64,000 nt of DNA, from the NCBI GenBank assembly GCA_964566225.1, contig CAZMHV010000001.1, positions 242,651 to 306,650 on the forward strand. The letters run 5' to 3'. How positions within the stretch are numbered: the stretch's first letter is position 1; each line of letters opens with the position of its first letter. The stretch is from an uncultured Gammaproteobacteria bacterium (GTDB taxonomy: Bacteria; Patescibacteriota; Patescibacteriia; Magasanikbacterales; UBA922). Below the pieces are notes generated by a model. The model searched no databases. It was given only the letters and a program-made list of their open reading frames with translations, and was not told where the DNA came from. The translations under genes were made by a program, and so were the position numbers. Shown here in pieces: positions 53,899-60,896 of the stretch.

Positions 53899-53932
53899 AA
53901 AAAGACATCCAGTATTTAGGATGTCTTTTTTA
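53899..53932. terminator. Bidirectional rho-independent terminator (tRNA operon / Mur ligase gene)
   Basis: AGACATCC-loop-GGATGTCT followed by TTTTTT; overlaps the stop codon of the minus-strand gene. Confidence 0.6.
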
Positions 53933-55262
53933 ATACTTCTCGAACAATTTTTCTGTCGTCCCAAGGAATAATTTTTCCTTTCACCACCATGCCCTGTTCA
54001 CTGCCCTTGCCTGTAATAAGTACCAAATCTTGTGGTCCTGCCATTTCAAGGGCCTTTTCAATGGCCTCTTTGCGATCCAAAATTTTAAATATATTTGTGC
54101 CTTCTTGTTTGCCTGTTTTCAGTACAGCAGAAGCCACATCATCAATAATGGTTTGAGGATTATCGTCGTATGGGTCTTCGTCGGTAATAATACACATGTC
54201 AGCATGATTCCCCACAAACTCACCCACGGTAAAACGACGCTGCACATCTCGGCCACCACCAGTAGAACCAAATACATGAATCACACGTTTGGGTACCAAA
54301 AGTTTTACTACTTCGTACAATTTTTGAATTGCCACAGGCTCAAATGCATAATCCACAATAACCTGAAATCCTTTTGCTTCGGCTTCTTTGATAAATTCCA
54401 AACGTCCTTCTGGTCCCTGCAAATTATTCACAGCTTGTTTTAACAGTGCCTCGGAAATTTGTAACCGATGCGCCACAGTGAGTGCTGCCAAAATATTTGA
54501 CACATTGTGTTCACCATAGAGTGGTGCATGAAAACTGTTTCCATTCCATACAAAGTGCAAACCATTTTTATCTGTGACAATATTTGCATTTGAACTTTGA
54601 AATTGTAATTTTTCATCAAAAGAATACTGCAAAAATTCATTGGCATATTCATTGTCGCCGTTGACCACAGCAATTTTTGGAATAGTATTTGAAAAAATCT
54701 TTTGCACTTTTGGTGTGAGCGCACGTGGTCCAGTCCATCGTCTTTGTGTGCCATGCACATTTTTGCGTCGAAGATTTGCAATGTGTTTGAAAAAAGAAAG
54801 TTTGGCGCCTTTGTAATTTTTGAAACTGCCATGTGACTCGATGTGTTCTGGATACAAATTGGTGAGCATGGCAATGTCGTAATTGATAAACCGGTGACGA
54901 TGCTGCACTACACCTTCGGATGTGGTTTCCACAATGGCAATGTCACATTGTTTGTTTACCATTTCACGCAAATACTTTTGAATTTGCATTTTGCCAAGCA
55001 TGGTCATTTTTTGGTCGTTGAGTTTCATTTCACCATTGATGTAAAAATCAATGGTAGAAAGTGAGCCGACTTTGAAACCAGCAGACTCCAAAATTTGTCG
55101 TAGAAAAAAAGTGGTGCTTGATTTGCCACTGGTTCCCGTAATACCAATCACCAGCAAACAATCTGCAGGGTGATGGTATTCGAGCGCGCCATACCAAGCA
55201 TAGTACAAATGCTTGAGGTTACGAATAGGTTTGGGGAGGAGTTTTTTGATGAGGGTTTTCAT
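53916..55262 (-). CDS. Mur ligase family protein, probably UDP-N-acetylmuramoyl-tripeptide synthetase (MurE-like, lacking the N-terminal domain)
   Basis: 'VIGITGTSGKSSTTF', 'NLYPEHIESHG', 'GRLEFI', 'DYAFEP' match MurE/Mur-ligase motifs. Confidence 0.6.
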   Translation of the reverse strand: MKTLIKKLLPKPIRNLKHLYYAWYGALEYHHPADCLLVIGITGTSGKSSTTFFLRQILESAGFKVGSLSTIDFYINGEMKLNDQKMTMLGKMQIQKYLREMVNKQCDIAIVETTSEGVVQHRHRFINYDIAMLTNLYPEHIESHGSFKNYKGAKLSFFKHIANLRRKNVHGTQRRWTGPRALTPKVQKIFSNTIPKIAVVNGDNEYANEFLQYSFDEKLQFQSSNANIVTDKNGLHFVWNGNSFHAPLYGEHNVSNILAALTVAHRLQISEALLKQAVNNLQGPEGRLEFIKEAEAKGFQVIVDYAFEPVAIQKLYEVVKLLVPKRVIHVFGSTGGGRDVQRRFTVGEFVGNHADMCIITDEDPYDDNPQTIIDDVASAVLKTGKQEGTNIFKILDRKEAIEKALEMAGPQDLVLITGKGSEQGMVVKGKIIPWDDRKIVREVLKKTS

Positions 55263-55441
55263 AGGATTGATTTATTTTAGCGGAATTAAAGAGAAAATAC
55301 AACCCATTTAAAAAAATTTGACAAAAAAATAAAGTTCGTATAAAGTTGAATTATATGAATAAACAAATCTCATCAATCCAAACTACCACCACAACCTGCC
55401 CTCTTGGCTAAGGCTGTGGTTTGATATCTCTATCTTCCAAA

Positions 55442-55468
55442 CTGCCCTAGCCGGGGCAGTTTTTGTTT
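55442..55468 (+). terminator. Terminator-like hairpin followed by a T-run, upstream of the GC-rich small ORF
   Basis: CTGCCC-loop-GGGCAG then TTTTTGTTT. Confidence 0.35.
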
Positions 55469-55539
55469 ATCGCGATATGCATCGATGCGGAATGGTCCGT
55501 GTCGATGCAGGGTCGCGAGAAACAGAAGAAGGAGGAAAT

Positions 55540-55887
55540 GTGAGACCTGATCTCTACCATCCGTGGTCGCCAGACGTGGGGCAGATGCTTCACGTCGGAA
55601 GCTGGCAGGTGGGATGTGTGCCACCGAGGGAGATGAAAGTGGAGGTCACGGTGCCTCCCGTGCAAAAGAAAGGACGGACGGCGTTCGCAGAGTGGCTCAA
55701 GGGGGTGAGCCAGTCGGAAAGCCGGATGCGAGTGCCAGGCGAGATCATCACCATGGGCGAGAACGTCTGCTCATGCTACATTTGCACGTGTGGATGCTAT
55801 AACCAATCGCGAGGAGGGATGCAGTACTTCATCGAAAAGCGTGAAGGCGTGTTCGTTCACGACTTCTGCGGAGAATCGGTGGAGTGA
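55540..55887 (+). CDS. GC-rich small cysteine-cluster protein (about 115 aa), hypothetical
   Basis: GTG start 4 nt after a perfect AAGGAGG; about 58% GC against an AT-rich background; motif 'CSCYICTCGCY' plus 'DFCGE'; followed by a strong GC hairpin terminator. Confidence 0.35.
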   Translation: MRPDLYHPWSPDVGQMLHVGSWQVGCVPPREMKVEVTVPPVQKKGRTAFAEWLKGVSQSESRMRVPGEIITMGENVCSCYICTCGCYNQSRGGMQYFIEKREGVFVHDFCGESVE

Positions 55888-55935
55888 AAAAAAAGGCGGC
55901 CGAGGATGTTCCCGGCCGCCGCTTCGATTTTGTTT
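55887..55935. terminator. Bidirectional rho-independent terminator with an 8-bp all-GC stem
   Basis: A8-GGCGGCCG-loop-CGGCCGCC-GCTTCGATTTTGTTTT between convergent genes. Confidence 0.7.
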
Positions 55936-56282
55936 TAGAGGGCATTTACAAATCCCTGAAGAAAAGCAATATCTTCACCTGTACCAATTTTATTTTTTTT
56001 GAGAATTTCAATTACCTTTTGTTTGTAATCTTTATCTTTTTGAGATTCTTTTTCAAGGCGTTTAAAAATGTCTGTGGTATAATCTGATAGTTTTCGATCA
56101 ATATATGTCTTCAGATTATGTTCTAACTTCACGTTTTCTGATTTCATCTCTGTTCGTAAACCATCGATTTTTCCATCCATCATATCTGACATGGCCGGAA
56201 TCAAAAAATCATTAGCAAACTCTACCAATAAATCTTTCATTTCTTCTTTTGTTGCAGGAGAATTATTTTTCATATACATCAA
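55935..56282 (-). CDS. hypothetical helical protein (115 aa), co-transcribed downstream of the translin homologue
   Basis: AT-rich native-type composition; no recognisable motif. Confidence 0.45.
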   Translation of the reverse strand: MMYMKNNSPATKEEMKDLLVEFANDFLIPAMSDMMDGKIDGLRTEMKSENVKLEHNLKTYIDRKLSDYTTDIFKRLEKESQKDKDYKQKVIEILKKNKIGTGEDIAFLQGFVNAL

Positions 56283-56316
56283 TTATAATCATCCTTTTCT
56301 TTTTCTGTCAAGTCTG

Positions 56317-56901
56317 CTACTTTCCACCACGCAGTGTCGTCTCATACACCACCACCTCAAGTTTATGCGCCGCCTGTTTGGCCTGGTCAAATTTGTTGCG
56401 TAAATATTTGGTGAGATTAAATTCCATGAGTTCACCAATAATTTCTTCGGCAGCAAGGGAACATTTTTTTACTGTGTTCATGTCGTGATTGGTTGCGGCA
56501 CGAATGGCGTAGCGAAAGAGTTCGCCTGGAACATCACAGAGACCTGCCAAATAAATTTCACCTGGCACATCAAGTCCTTTGACTTCTCCCATTTCTCCGG
56601 TTTTCAAAAATTGGTAAAATAAACTGGCTTCCACATATTCTTCGAGTGCTGCGGCAAAAACACCTTCGTCTTGAATTTCTGGATTCTTTTTATTGCGTTT
56701 GACCAAATCTTTCATGATGGATTCCACGAGTTTCAACTTTTGTTCGGCCTCTTTGACTTCACCTCGGTGAAGATCAAAAATAACTCGCTTGGCATGGTGC
56801 AAAGCATCGTCAGAACTTTTAATAACGTCCCGGCGGATGAGGGCGTATTCATGAAGATTTTTCTTGAGTTTTTCTACGTAATTCTTTTTGAGCATAGGCA
56901 A
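56317..56901 (-). CDS. Translin-family protein
   Basis: 'EEYVEASLFYQFL', 'YLAGLCDVPGELFRYAIRAATNHD' and 'LRNKFDQAKQAAHKLEVVVYETTLRG' align with the human translin C-terminal region ('YLVGVLQLASELSRLSVNSVTAGD', 'LRKRYDGLKYDVKKVEEVVYDLSIRG'). Confidence 0.6.
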   Translation of the reverse strand: MPMLKKNYVEKLKKNLHEYALIRRDVIKSSDDALHHAKRVIFDLHRGEVKEAEQKLKLVESIMKDLVKRNKKNPEIQDEGVFAAALEEYVEASLFYQFLKTGEMGEVKGLDVPGEIYLAGLCDVPGELFRYAIRAATNHDMNTVKKCSLAAEEIIGELMEFNLTKYLRNKFDQAKQAAHKLEVVVYETTLRGGK

Positions 56902-56958
56902 AAATAAGGGTCAATAAGTGCCTGTATTATATACTCCCCACCCCTTTTGGTCAAAAAC

Positions 56959-56987
56959 TTGACTTTTTTTTGAAAAAGTTTTATTAT
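56959..56987 (+). promoter_or_regulatory. sigma70-like promoter TTGACT-N17-TATTAT upstream of tRNA-Lys
   Basis: Exact 17-nt spacer; the tRNA begins 21 nt downstream. Confidence 0.5.
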
Positions 56988-57008: not shown

Positions 57009-57081
57009 GGGATGGTAGCTCAGTCGGTAGAGCAGTAGCCTTTTAAGCTAATGGTCCTGGGTTCGATCCCCAGCCGTCCCA
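57009..57081 (+). tRNA. tRNA-Lys (anticodon TTT)
   Basis: Acceptor GGGATGG/CCGTCCC, D-arm GCTC-AGTCGGTA-GAGC, anticodon loop CTTTTAA, T-arm CTGGG-TTCGATC-CCCAG, discriminator A; no encoded CCA. Confidence 0.8.
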
Positions 57082-57084
57082 CAC

Positions 57085-57120
57085 AAAAAAATACCTCGAG
57101 AAATTCGAGGTATTTTTTAT
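57085..57120 (+). terminator. Rho-independent terminator after tRNA-Lys
   Basis: ATACCTCGA-GAAAT-TCGAGGTAT followed by TTTTTT. Confidence 0.7.
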
Positions 57121-57239
57121 TATATTTTTCAATCCCGCACTCCTAGAATATGTCGAACAGTCAACAGATTCTGCTGCTGCGGGATCGACGAAATTTCACC
57201 TTCTCCCCCGCAACAACACCGGCATTGCACCGGGGGGGG

Positions 57240-58145
57240 TCAGTAGTCGATCTGGTTCGCCGGGAGCGGATCGATGAGCCTGATCTGGCGGAGGCGACGG
57301 AACTTGTAGGCGCCGGCCGTCACCAGAGGCTGAGTGACCTCCGGGTGGATGAAGATCGGCATGGAGAACCGATCCCGGCAGGCCGCGCGCGGGTTGACCA
57401 CGCGGTGCGTCACCGAGGGGATCTCGCCGAACGTGTGCATCTGCAGCATGTCACCAGGGTTGACGATGATCGACCCCATGGGGTTGTTGGCGTCCAGCCA
57501 CACGCCGTCGCGCGTCTTCACCTGCAGGCCCGGCTCGTCCGACGGCACCAACAGAGTGACCAGGTTGATGTCCTCGTGATCACCCGAACGGGGCACTTCG
57601 GGGTCCGAGCCGTCCAGCGCCGGGTAGTGGATGACGCGGAGCAGGTTCTCGCCCTTGGCGATCCAGTTGAGGAAGAAGTTCGGATCGCGACCGAGGTGCA
57701 TGGCGAGCGCCTTCAGGATCGTTCCACCAGCACAGGCCTTGAGCGCCGCGTGAAGTTCCAGAGCCGTGGGCCCGAAGTCCGGCACCTCGACCGGGAACTC
57801 GTTCCGAACGATCGACGCCGGATCGTTGACGTGCCAGAAGGCCATGCGGTTGGCCCGGGTCTGCCCCACCGAGACTTCGGTGTCCGCGGGCGTGAAGCCC
57901 ATCTGGTGACCCTCGGCCACGAACTCGTACCGCAGCCGCTGCTCCAGGGTCATGCGGGTGAGGAAGACCTCACGCGCGAGCTCGAAAGCCCGGGCGAGAA
58001 GATTCTCCTGCACGCCGTGTCCGACGATGGAGACGAAGCCGTGCTCACGGAAGATACGCCCGAGCGCGTCCGCGATTTCCATGTCTCCCGCTTCGTCTTC
58101 TCCGAAGCGGTGCATGTCAAGAATGGGAATACCACTCAATTTCAT
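57240..58145 (-). CDS. 2OG-Fe(II) oxygenase, isopenicillin-N-synthase-like family (GC-rich, foreign composition)
   Basis: N-terminal DIOX_N-like 'IPILDMHRF', HxD 'HEDINLVTLL', distal His in 'THRVVNP'; about 62% GC. Confidence 0.7.
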   Translation of the reverse strand: MKLSGIPILDMHRFGEDEAGDMEIADALGRIFREHGFVSIVGHGVQENLLARAFELAREVFLTRMTLEQRLRYEFVAEGHQMGFTPADTEVSVGQTRANRMAFWHVNDPASIVRNEFPVEVPDFGPTALELHAALKACAGGTILKALAMHLGRDPNFFLNWIAKGENLLRVIHYPALDGSDPEVPRSGDHEDINLVTLLVPSDEPGLQVKTRDGVWLDANNPMGSIIVNPGDMLQMHTFGEIPSVTHRVVNPRAACRDRFSMPIFIHPEVTQPLVTAGAYKFRRLRQIRLIDPLPANQIDY

Positions 58146-58214
58146 TACCCTTTCAATTTGAGTTCAATTATCCCAGGCAACCACGCCCGAGAACCACCCG
58201 CAAGAATACAAAAA

Positions 58215-58240
58215 ATACTTTTGATTGTCAACAAAAGTAT
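58215..58240 (+). promoter_or_regulatory. Perfect 9-bp inverted repeat ATACTTTTG-N8-CAAAAGTAT (operator candidate) overlapping the -35
   Basis: Seen in the divergent intergenic region between the oxygenase and the nucleoside phosphorylase. Confidence 0.4.
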
Positions 58241-58268
58241 TGACAAACAGAAGAATTTTCTTTATTCT
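58240..58268 (+). promoter_or_regulatory. sigma70 promoter TTGACA-N17-TATTCT for the nucleoside phosphorylase gene
   Basis: Consensus -35, 17-nt spacer; AGGGGA RBS before the ATG at 58300. Confidence 0.5.
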
Positions 58269-58299
58269 GCACCTACACCAACAACCAGGGGAAACCCAA

Positions 58300-59109
58300 A
58301 TGAGTGAGAAAGCTGTCTCGGCAGCCCGTCCGATCATCGGTGGACTGACCATGCACCTCAAGACCGCGCCGGGCTCGCTGGCGCCGCACTGCCTCATGGT
58401 GGGCGCGGCGGGGCGTGCACGGACGATCGCGCAGGAGTACCTGACCGGCGCAGTCAAGGTGGGCGGTGACGACAACCGCTACTACGACTGCTACACGGGC
58501 GAGTACAGGGGGTTGCCGATCTCCGTGGTCACCCACGGGATCGGCATGCCTTCGATGCTCATCGCGATCGAAGAGTCCCGCATGTCAGGTGCCCAACGGT
58601 ACCTGCGAATCGGGTCGTGCTCCACGCTCCGGCGAGACATCAACATCGGTGACGTAGCCATCGTGGCCGGCGCGCTCCCGCCGGGCGCGACAGACATCGA
58701 CGGGTTGGTGAATGCTGACCCAAGGATGTACCACGCGCTTCTCGAAGCTGCAGACAAGATCGTCAAGGTGCCCTATGCCTACGGCATCTGCGTGACCACC
58801 AACGACTTCACTGGTGGGCAGGGCAGGCCGGACGCAGAAGGCTTCCTGGACGAGGAGGACAAGCTCGATCACGAAGCGAGGATCAACGGCGGCGAGATCG
58901 ACTTCTACGACATGGAGAACTACGCGCTGTTCAACCGGGCCAGGACTCGTCGCACCGCGAGACGCGCCGGCTTCATGGCCGGCAGCGTGATGGCGGTATA
59001 CGGCAACCGCATCACTGACCAGCTCGTCGAGCACGCCGGTGACAAGGAGACCATCGAGACGGCCCTGCAGGCCATGGTGCTGCTCGCGCACGACCACCCC
59101 CTCCCCTGA
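58300..59109 (+). CDS. PNP/UDP-family (family-1) nucleoside phosphorylase/nucleosidase (GC-rich, foreign composition)
   Basis: 'HCLMVGAAGRARTIAQEYL' resembles the DeoD 'VVLMPGDPLRAKYIAETFL' region; 'ISVVTHGIGMPSMLIAIEE' and 'GSCSTLRRDINIGDVAIV' resemble the family core. Confidence 0.65.
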   Translation: MSEKAVSAARPIIGGLTMHLKTAPGSLAPHCLMVGAAGRARTIAQEYLTGAVKVGGDDNRYYDCYTGEYRGLPISVVTHGIGMPSMLIAIEESRMSGAQRYLRIGSCSTLRRDINIGDVAIVAGALPPGATDIDGLVNADPRMYHALLEAADKIVKVPYAYGICVTTNDFTGGQGRPDAEGFLDEEDKLDHEARINGGEIDFYDMENYALFNRARTRRTARRAGFMAGSVMAVYGNRITDQLVEHAGDKETIETALQAMVLLAHDHPLP

Positions 59110-59217
59110 CCTTGCCTCGGCAAGGGGACACGCGGGTGGCATCAAGGACGACGTCACCCGGACTGTGCATTTCATTTTTGAAAAATACAGTTTGGAGATG
59201 TGATGTCGTCTCAACAT

Positions 59218-59813: not shown

Positions 59814-60896
59814 TTACTGAACTGCCGAGACAGCCTGAGCATCAGCAGGTGCACAGATACTCGTCATCACCTCGTGAGTCCTGGCCATCTCCGGAAATGA
59901 CGGAAACTGAAACCCTGAGAGTGTCTGAACATGCGAGGACTTGTCGAGCTTGAGCAGCTTGGTGATATCCTCCATCTGCTCGGCACAGAAAATATCGTCG
60001 AGCACAGCCTGACGAACCGGTGTTTCCTCATACGCCGCTTGATAGGCCATAGCTTCGGCCACCACAAACTGCATATACTGCTCGCGGATGTCTCCAATGC
60101 AGAGTGAGATCTGATTGGGATTTTTCACCCCGTTCAGATGAAAATCTGCGAGCAAATTGAGCGCCACAACGGAACGAATCACGAACTGTCCATTGGCATC
60201 CCTCGGCAACGCCTCCCGCAGATTCCAGTGCAACTGTGCACACTGGGCTTCGCGGTGACGTGTACGAAAGCACTCCAACTTCTTGGCCGCCGCTCGACTG
60301 GTCTTGGCTGCACTCGTCAGCACACCTTCGCACTGAGCTCGAGTGCTCTCGGTCAGACTGACCTTCTCCGTGATCAGTTTGGACGAAGGTGCAAAGCCCC
60401 GCCACTCCCAGTCTTCACTGTAAACCTTACATGGGAGATTCCTACAGACGGTGAGCAGATCAGCGTCCGAGACCACCGCCTGAACCGAGGACGAGACCGC
60501 CACGGTTGGTAGCGCAGGTGGAAGAGGTGGAGTTGGCGCTGTCGTATCAGGTTCCAGAGACGGAGGCGAAACCGGCGATGATAGCATCACCGGAAGGGAC
60601 TTCGCCGGGACAGGAAGAACCAGCGTCGGCTCCGAAGAGATTGCGCCCAGCAACCACGCGATGTCATCCAAATCCCCTGCAGCATGGAAGTCTTCGACCA
60701 CCACCTCCTTTTCGTCTTGCGAACTGCCCCCCGAGGCTCCCAGGAAGTATCCACCTCCAAACGACACAGCCCAGAGAAACAGAACGCTGCGGACGACGTT
60801 CCGAAGAGCCTTTCCACTCAACTCGATTTTGTTGCTCACGACAGACTCCCCTCGCGCCTCGCGCGAATTGAAAAAGTGAAGCATCAGTCGACCCAT
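59814..60896 (-). CDS. hypothetical membrane-anchored protein with Pro-rich linker (GC-rich, foreign composition)
   Basis: About 55% GC; N-terminal TM 'VVRSVLFLWAVSFGGGYFLGA', linker 'PTPPLPPALP', Cys-containing C-terminal domain. Confidence 0.45.
   Translation of the reverse strand: MGRLMLHFFNSREARGESVVSNKIELSGKALRNVVRSVLFLWAVSFGGGYFLGASGGSSQDEKEVVVEDFHAAGDLDDIAWLLGAISSEPTLVLPVPAKSLPVMLSSPVSPPSLEPDTTAPTPPLPPALPTVAVSSSVQAVVSDADLLTVCRNLPCKVYSEDWEWRGFAPSSKLITEKVSLTESTRAQCEGVLTSAAKTSRAAAKKLECFRTRHREAQCAQLHWNLREALPRDANGQFVIRSVVALNLLADFHLNGVKNPNQISLCIGDIREQYMQFVVAEAMAYQAAYEETPVRQAVLDDIFCAEQMEDITKLLKLDKSSHVQTLSGFQFPSFPEMARTHEVMTSICAPADAQAVSAVQ

Follow-up and report, generated by a model that had tools for sequence, protein, structure and literature searches.

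The locus raises the question of what a translin-like gene does in a bacterial genome, and whether its product acts alone, with the protein encoded just downstream, or on the transcript of the adjacent tRNA gene. We addressed it through the encoded protein, its neighbors in the window (the whole 64-kb stretch of DNA that was analyzed), and related loci in other genomes; the features concerned are collected in Table 1. Read from its TTG codon, the translin ORF gives 194 aa. Public gene calls, including an identical protein (P0001), and about 200 homologs, i.e., almost all of them, are 190 to 192 aa long; because of these lengths, the ATG at codon 3 (56895), giving 192 aa, is probably the true start.

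Table 1. Features at the translin-family locus, in window coordinates
Feature	Coordinates	Strand	Basis or remark
MurE-subfamily Mur ligase, 448 aa, lacking the N-terminal domain	53916..55262	-	TIGR01085
Strain-specific insertion 2, GC-rich (57%) block	55317..55887	+	Absent from L033
Cys-rich 136-aa ORF in insertion 2	55477..55887	+	No family match
GC-rich terminator hairpin	55895..55920	-	Terminator scan
Strain-specific insertion 1, carrying a promoter and the 115-aa ORF	55925..56316	-	Absent from L033
115-aa helical orphan ORF, GC 30%	55935..56282	-	34 bp downstream of translin ORF
Perfect-consensus promoter, TTGACA-18-TATAAT (12/12)	56311..56282	-	Consensus scan
Translin/TRAX-family (prokaryotic C3PO-like) gene	56317..56901	-	Pfam PF01997, PDB matches, AF2, Foldseek
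Sigma-70-like promoter candidate of translin gene, TTGACC-17-TATAAT	56926..56954	-	Consensus scan
Promoter candidate of tRNA-Lys, back-to-back with that of translin gene	56959-56987	+	Consensus scan
tRNA-Lys(UUU), divergent upstream neighbor	57009..57082	+	ARAGORN, Rfam
tRNA-Lys terminator	57086-57118		Island starts directly after
GC-rich (about 60-64%) foreign island, about 2 kb, directly 3' of tRNA-Lys	57130..59200	.	Composition
2OG-Fe(II) oxygenase in island	57240..58145	-	Pfam, NCBIfam
Uridine/purine-nucleoside-phosphorylase-like gene in island	58225..59109	+	Pfam, NCBIfam

The assignment to the translin family, made earlier from the sequence alone, holds. Pfam PF01997 (Translin) matches the 194-aa protein with an E value of 3.1e-19 and 70.2 bits (curated cut-off, 25.9 bits). 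The match is well beyond what chance would give and spans positions 3 to 205 of the 205-position profile and protein residues 23 to 192, indicating that the similarity is full length and extends beyond the C-terminal half. The sequence-only reading had seen a resemblance to the C-terminal half of translin; the shared blocks are real, but the C-terminal limit is wrong, an impression explained by the eukaryotic translins aligning only over residues about 78/103 to 192 (phmmer, E about 1e-3 to 3e-4). In the same phmmer search of PDB sequences, the archaeal proteins AfTRAX (E = 1.2e-12, residues 9 to 175) and NEQ131 (E = 1e-9) align across residues 9 to 186. A profile built from 112 homologs (profile A1) recovered NEQ131 (3e-32), human TRAX (3e-25), Drosophila TRAX (7e-24), and AfTRAX (5e-23) from the PDB, which upholds the translin/TRAX family assignment, whereas translins scored more weakly (4e-19 to 4e-14); by these profile E values, TRAX and archaeal C3PO are nearer relatives of the protein than translin is. 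The AlphaFold2 monomer model (pLDDT 96.4, pTM 0.90) has seven helices and shows the all-alpha seven-helix translin fold. Its best Foldseek matches in the PDB are NeC3PO, human TRAX chains, and AfC3PO (TM 0.85 to 0.89, rmsd 1.6 to 2.3 Å), and every one of the best 50 PDB matches listed is a translin, TRAX, or C3PO chain (TM 0.73 to 0.89).

The catalytic tetrad of the 194-aa protein consists of E88, E91, D123, and E127, which align (phmmer) with E82, E85, D117, and E121 of NeC3PO; the spacing of the Ne tetrad (3, 32, and 4 residues) confirms the alignment register. In NeC3PO, Glu82, Glu85, Asp117, and Glu121 coordinate two catalytic cations, and their equivalents in human TRAX are Glu123, Glu126, Asp193, and Glu197 (PMC5100593). 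The two AfTRAX chain sequences, 3zc1 and 3zc0, disagree with each other at the site matching D123 (D versus A). The sequence-only reading had made its proposal depend on such acidic residues, and they are present and nearly without exception conserved: among 217 single-domain homologs, E88 and E127 are found in 217/217 and E91 and D123 in 216/217 each. K38, G126, R130, R168, K170, and D172 are conserved across the same 217 proteins, with K38, R130, R168, and K170 forming the set of invariant basic residues. Because all four catalytic residues are present, and translin lacks them, the protein is, as judged by its sequence and predicted fold, of the catalytic, TRAX-like type rather than translin-like.

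The protein can be compared with known members of the superfamily. Nanoarchaeum equitans C3PO (NEQ131, or NeTrax; PDB 5JR9, 5JRC, and 5JRE) likewise consists of one translin-superfamily protein, about 190 aa long, from an ultra-small, reduced-genome organism; it is the best profile match (E = 3e-32, TM 0.85 to 0.89), and its E-E-D-E tetrad aligns residue for residue. It differs in that identity is about 22% and its host is archaeal rather than bacterial (Patescibacteria); an octamer and nuclease activity are predicted for the present protein by homology. The substrate-stacking R164 of the Ne protein aligns with N169 here, which is flanked by the invariant R168 and K170. Archaeoglobus fulgidus C3PO (AfTRAX; PDB 3ZC0 and 3ZC1), the best single-sequence match, is equal in length, keeps the catalytic Asp position, and shares 27 to 28% identity at an rmsd of 1.6 to 2.0 Å; archaeal TRAX is often encoded in a SepRS operon (PMC5424206), whereas here it is tRNA-Lys and a MurE-like ligase that are conserved as neighbors. 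Eukaryotic TRAX (human 3PJA chains J-L) has the same fold (TM 0.89) and an identical catalytic tetrad, but it is 290 aa long, is not stable by itself, and depends on translin, with which it forms a 6:2 hetero-octamer, whereas no translin-type partner gene and no RNAi context are present here. Eukaryotic translin shares the superfamily and fold and aligns over its C-terminal half; unlike the present protein, which has all four, translin subunits lack the catalytic residues for phosphodiester hydrolysis (PMC5100593).

Archaeal TRAX alone is an active homo-octamer (PMC5100593; PMC9051087), and no second translin-family gene was found within the 64-kb window, which together argue for self-sufficiency. 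We consider the protein to be, most likely, a bacterial counterpart of archaeal C3PO (AfTRAX, NEQ131), i.e., a self-sufficient TRAX-like nuclease encoded by a vertically inherited housekeeping gene. By homology with AfC3PO and NeC3PO, it would self-assemble into a hollow homo-octamer in which chemically identical subunits split their roles: two neighboring ones would cut (“TRAX-like”) and six would bind (“translin-like”). Inside the cavity, two-metal, Mg2+/Mn2+-dependent hydrolysis would cleave short ssRNA and, to a lesser extent, DNA, and no second subunit would be required. Going by gene context, the protein would most likely help to clear or process RNA fragments in general within a reduced genome, rather than act in defense. 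The archaeal structures from which the oligomer, the metals, and the substrate are taken are 22 to 28% identical to the protein.

Could the gene nevertheless be half of a pair? The sequence-only reading had described a two-gene minus-strand unit in which the 115-aa protein could be a TRAX-like partner. The two ORFs do share a strand, with 34 bp between them and foreign insertions around them, as might be expected of a two-subunit C3PO-like or defense module acquired as foreign DNA; the rest of the evidence, however, effectively refutes such a module. A locus from another sample (L033), 96% identical over the translin gene and 90% over murE, lacks window positions 55317 to 56316 save for a 37-nt terminator hairpin (its positions 746 to 780 match window positions 55924 to 55888). 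The ancestral junction, as preserved there, runs from the translin stop codon through 13 nt, the GC-rich terminator hairpin, and about 45 nt to the murE ATG. The 115-aa protein had no tblastn match in 30 related loci and two matches only among 5.8 billion proteins, namely itself and a 54% relative within an unrelated cluster of small genes. Against PDB, Pfam, and NCBIfam, it gave noise-level coiled-coil matches only, and against the translin profile the hhalign probability was 0.25%. Its gene has its own perfect promoter and a GC content of 30%, versus 42% for the translin gene, and the searches gave no PADLOC match and no phage or plasmid homolog.

The same-strand arrangement is thus real, but it is a strain-specific insertion and not a unit: the 115-aa gene is no partner of the translin homolog, and the apparent two-gene unit is an accident of one strain. 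A TRAX-like partner is further disfavored because the translin homolog is itself of the TRAX-like catalytic type, which is homo-oligomeric in archaea (PMC5100593). A eukaryotic-style heteromeric C3PO would call for a further translin-family protein without catalytic residues, and neither the 115-aa neighbor nor any other gene of the window supplies one. The small ORFs at the corresponding junction in other relatives are unrelated to the 115-aa protein and, barring two pairs of close orthologs, to each other; since they differ in this way, the translin-murE junction is an insertion hot spot with no conserved third gene. In one relative (L009), a 193-aa ORF directly follows the translin gene and was considered as a paralog, which sequence comparison did not bear out. 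In the window, the 136-aa Cys-rich protein of the second insertion matched nothing in Pfam, NCBIfam, PADLOC, or PHROG. No RNA gene was found in the GC-rich spacer (55263 to 55934), and the whole-window Rfam search gave four tRNAs only.

Beyond the insertions lies the MurE-like ligase, which scores 317 bits against TIGR01085 (cut-off, 257 bits) over model positions 77 to 471. We surveyed the neighborhoods of translin relatives (39 to 81% identity) in 30 species-representative genomes. In 26 of the 30 loci, a MurE-subfamily ligase is encoded downstream of the translin gene and in the same orientation, and in three of the other four the contig ends shortly past the translin gene. Eleven loci have a gap of -4 to +10 bp between the two genes, which indicates an operon. 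The ligase is the ancestral immediate downstream neighbor of the translin gene, and gene context suggests that, in Ca. Magasanikbacteria, the two were ancestrally co-transcribed.

This conserved two-gene operon could reflect a joint cell-envelope-related function, the more so as the MurE-like protein lacks its N-terminal domain and as a ligase is still close by in a relative at 38% identity (L035). We regard that as very unlikely: no chemistry joining a translin-fold nuclease to Mur ligases is known, the linkage is missing from six loci (L027, L036, L038, L040, L041, and L043), and within the subclade to which the window belongs a terminator and variable inserts part the two genes. In Magasanikbacteria, the pairing is tight and in part overlapping, a feature that an RNA-turnover role leaves unexplained.

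The tRNA-Lys gene was correctly placed directly upstream on the opposite strand, 107 bp from the translin ORF. The promoter candidates of the translin gene and the tRNA match the consensus at 11/12 and 10/12 positions, respectively; these candidates are consensus matches only. Of the 27 survey loci that could be evaluated, 19 have tRNA-Lys(UUU) upstream at a distance of no more than about 500 bp; it was not found upstream in L004, L005, L007, L009, L010, and L023. The gene itself has a GC content of 42.4%, close to the window mean of 41%, and the wider neighbors in the window are housekeeping genes, namely, those of DnaB, YidC, HrcA, and GrpE. Because of this composition and the conserved synteny, the translin gene is native and appears to be vertically inherited in Magasanikbacteria, which speaks against its having been foreign.

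The adjacency might mean that the protein is a dedicated tRNA-processing nuclease tied to the neighboring tRNA-Lys, removing 5' leader fragments, for example, as Neurospora C3PO does. The divergent arrangement in 19/27 loci with back-to-back candidate promoters fits this reading, as do the degradation of 5' pre-tRNA fragments by eukaryotic C3PO (PMC5100593), the operon of archaeal TRAX with SepRS (PMC5424206), and the position of the translin gene beside class IIb aminoacyl-tRNA synthetases in two related contigs (L041 and L043). It is nonetheless improbable. The adjacency is limited to one class that shares overall synteny, it is absent upstream in six close loci, the six distant loci have no tRNA gene within 5 kb, and the adjacency of a tRNA gene is uninformative about substrate. 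Since they are lost in distant lineages, the tRNA-Lys and MurE adjacencies are lineage-specific synteny, conserved for tRNA-Lys within Magasanikbacteria only, and the suggested link between the gene and tRNA (19/27 close loci, 0/6 distant loci) is not supported.

In more distant relatives, the neighborhoods are of other kinds. In L035, the translin gene is followed by a glycosyltransferase and a Mur ligase. In L036 (36% identity, on an 897-kb contig), the order is YceG, translin gene, O-methyltransferase, RNase T-like exonuclease, RlmH, and PyrH. Kerfeldbacteria-type loci have RuvA, FemAB, a nucleotidyltransferase, and the translin gene, then exonuclease VII or LexA with a type I restriction-modification system, and a PD-(D/E)XK protein is also nearby. 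L041 and L043, archaeal-looking contigs by their Pelota and pyruvoyl arginine decarboxylase genes, carry the translin gene, an HD or metallo-beta-lactamase protein, and two class IIb aminoacyl-tRNA synthetases. In the neighborhood survey that had been called for, the tRNA/MurE setting thus disappears in distant lineages, where RNA-processing, DNA-repair, and aminoacyl-tRNA-synthetase genes take its place. The common thread of the distant contexts is information-processing housekeeping. Neighborhoods vary by lineage, and with RNA-processing, DNA-repair, and tRNA-synthetase neighbors all occurring, no single pathway is indicated.

RuvA, exonuclease VII, the PD-(D/E)XK protein, and LexA in the Kerfeldbacteria-type loci would suit a nuclease of ssDNA or of recombination and repair rather than an RNase, and NeC3PO does cleave ssDNA and dsDNA too (PMC5100593). 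With ssRNA, however, the activity of this archaeal enzyme exceeds that with ssDNA by 10-fold or more (PMC5100593), and the remaining contexts are RNA related or cell wall related, so that we give this alternative little probability. A bolder version of the C3PO-like reading is also unlikely: the homo-oligomeric TRAX-like nuclease as a conserved core gene of whole Patescibacteria classes (Magasanikbacteria, Kerfeldbacteria, and others), replacing missing canonical RNases and having a real tie to tRNA metabolism. Such a tie, if true, would account for the tRNA-Lys adjacency, the class IIb synthetase neighbors, and the archaeal TRAX-SepRS operon alike; it would give prokaryotic C3PO its first physiological role and supply an evolutionary root for tRNA processing by eukaryotic C3PO.

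The surroundings were described beforehand as a region of repeated foreign-DNA insertion, and the GC-rich patches and the insertions relative to L033 and L001 agree with this. In L001, a homolog of the 137-aa protein is located about 300 bp from tRNA-Lys, without the island; L002 has different GC-rich cargo at the island site, with a PyrF-like ORF. The best relatives of the island's oxygenase are 56 to 64% identical, followed by about 40%-identical proteins of Pseudomonadota, Myxococcota, and Cyanobacteria. The island was recovered in two independent run assemblies, which makes an assembly chimera unlikely. No integrase was found, and the flanks of the island did not show direct repeats matching the 3' end of tRNA-Lys, as att sites would leave. 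The island, which is no part of the translin unit, the 115-aa gene, and the GC-rich ORF are later strain-specific insertions, and the translin gene is a resident, not cargo.

A defense role, which had been raised as a possibility, found no backing in these data. PADLOC gave nothing significant for the translin homolog (best E = 0.021, 11.8 bits), and PADLOC and PHROGs together gave nothing significant for it or for the 115-, 136-, 137-, and 360-aa proteins; the two island enzymes, scanned with PADLOC only, gave nothing significant either. The translin homolog had no matches in plasmid collections, phage collections, or IMG/VR. Judged by these searches, its GC content, and its synteny, the gene has the marks neither of a defense system nor of mobile cargo.

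Bacterial homologs had been called rare, which the searches contradict. A word-indexed search returned 648 related 90%-identity clusters, and an exhaustive search returned 1055 50%-identity clusters at E <= 1e-3 (508 at E <= 1e-10); with such numbers, the translin family is no rarity in this part of the bacterial tree. Named homologs and related loci belong to Ca. Magasanikbacteria and Patescibacteria, the ultra-small Candidate Phyla Radiation bacteria from which the window itself comes, and the more distant members include Ca. Kerfeldbacteria. The family is spread through Magasanikbacteria, Kerfeldbacteria, and other Patescibacteria, and the gene is common, and core, in Magasanikbacteria. In the literature searched, bacterial superfamily members are listed for Chloroflexi only (PMC5100593, with reference to Gupta et al. 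2012); as summarized there, those proteins also occur as one gene per genome and are strongly similar to the archaeal ones, and they come from a different phylum than Patescibacteria.

The translin superfamily and its TRAX/prokaryotic C3PO subtype are thus already known, and the present protein is a further member. What is new is modest, namely, the wide, conserved presence in Patescibacteria and, in Magasanikbacteria, the conserved association with a short MurE-like ligase. In the literature searched, no paper joined translin with Patescibacteria or CPR, and no physiological role was found described for prokaryotic C3PO-like nucleases, whose crystal structures are available. The TRAX-like gene reveals no new mechanism or system; as a widespread, vertically inherited core gene, it extends the known bacterial range of the family to several Candidate Phyla Radiation classes, and many sequences and conserved contexts can now be used for working out function. 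For this locus, the picture changes in three respects: the protein is TRAX-like and probably self-sufficient, the 115-aa gene came in by an insertion and is unrelated to it, and the proximity of the tRNA reflects lineage synteny.

Database names for these proteins are uneven. The nearest NCBIfam models (PRK14562) are named “haloacid dehalogenase superfamily protein,” and UniRef gives one homolog the same “haloacid dehalogenase” name; this label conflicts with the translin fold of the predicted model and is, on that basis, a mislabel. Other such proteins are auto-labeled “translin family RNA/ssDNA-binding protein,” and one homolog, P0136, is a tandem-domain protein.

A GC-rich island of ~2 kb (60 to 64% GC, versus 41% for the genome) lies directly 3′ of the tRNA-Lys terminator and carries genes for a 2OG-Fe(II) oxygenase and a nucleoside-phosphorylase-like protein; neither an integrase nor att repeats were found at the island. 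The closest relatives of the oxygenase share 56 to 64% identity, the next ones (~40%) come from Pseudomonadota, Myxococcota, and Cyanobacteria, and no exact match exists in the protein collection. The public gene call at this place, on contig L031, is a 385-aa open reading frame (ORF) that, judged by position, is antisense to the oxygenase and has no Pfam match. In related Magasanikbacteria, this position beside tRNA-Lys is occupied by other GC-rich cargo, such as a PyrF-like ORF in locus L002, and four loci (L005, L006, L007, and L008) have GC-rich patches just upstream of the translin gene. These observations suggest that the site is a recurrent hot spot where GC-rich genes are acquired, including some that belong to nucleotide metabolism.

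Features of the window and of the compared sequences
Feature	Sequence	Position	Strand	Remarks
MurE-subfamily ligase	window	53916-55262	-	TIGR01085, 317 bits
Hairpins flanking Cys-rich ORF	window	55439-55462, 55895-55920
Cys-rich ORF, 136 aa	window	55477-55887	+	57% GC; motifs CSCYICTCGC and FCGE
Sigma-70 promoter	window	56282-56311	-	perfect consensus, TTGACA-18-TATAAT
GC-rich island	window	57130-59200
2OG-Fe(II) oxygenase	window	57240..58145	-	in island
Uridine/purine-nucleoside-phosphorylase-like gene	window	58225..59109	+	in island
360-aa ORF	window	59814-60896	-	56% GC; Pro/Ser/Thr/Ala-rich region
PyrF-like ORF, 239 aa	L002	4910-5629		beside tRNA-Lys
385-aa ORF	L031	4589-5746
Archaeal-looking translin context	L041	5001-10579
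Archaeal-looking translin context	L043	4742-8962

The 360-aa ORF, which has no Pfam or NCBIfam match, is probably another foreign insertion, since tblastn finds matches in none of the 30 related loci. The Cys-rich ORF is flanked by a hairpin on either side and is missing from the 96%-identical strain L033; it has no match in Pfam, NCBIfam, PADLOC, or PHROG. The sigma-70 promoter lies a few bases beyond the stop codon of the translin gene, and its –10 box extends to the point where the 115-aa ORF is annotated to start; this inserted gene therefore came with its own promoter, and its mRNA may be leaderless, or translation may begin at an internal Met. The MurE-like ligase covers only positions 77 to 471 of the TIGR01085 model, so the N-terminal domain of canonical MurE is missing, and the orthologous ORFs (L002 to L029) are similarly short (~415 to 460 aa).

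Many database proteins of 350 to 550 aa contain two translin-family domains; they make up 44 of the best 150 representatives (including P0136, P0138, P0139, and P0148). In 15 checked proteins whose two domains are both complete in length, the catalytic E-E-D is missing from the N-terminal half, which retains R-R-K-D, whereas the whole E-E-D-E tetrad is present in the C-terminal half. The two-domain proteins look like single-chain translin-TRAX fusions; the only one with a named source is P0136, from the raphidophyte alga Chattonella subsalsa. Two further contigs (L041 and L043) are archaeal-looking by their Pelota and pyruvoyl arginine decarboxylase genes, and in both, an HD or metallo-β-lactamase protein is encoded after the translin homologue, and two class IIb aminoacyl-tRNA synthetases come next, an arrangement that recalls the published archaeal TRAX-SepRS operon.

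Fourteen third-party-annotation (TPA) metagenome-assembled genomes (L001, L003, L008, L010 to L014, L018, L021, L022, L027, L029, and L030) are titled “uncultured Gammaproteobacteria bacterium”; most of them share their genes and gene order (tRNA-Lys, translin, short MurE) with “Ca. Magasanikbacteria”, and the titles look like placeholder mislabels. Prokaryotic translin-family proteins are called “haloacid dehalogenase (superfamily protein)” in NCBIfam (PRK14562 models) and UniRef (P0123), a name that conflicts with the translin fold of the window protein.
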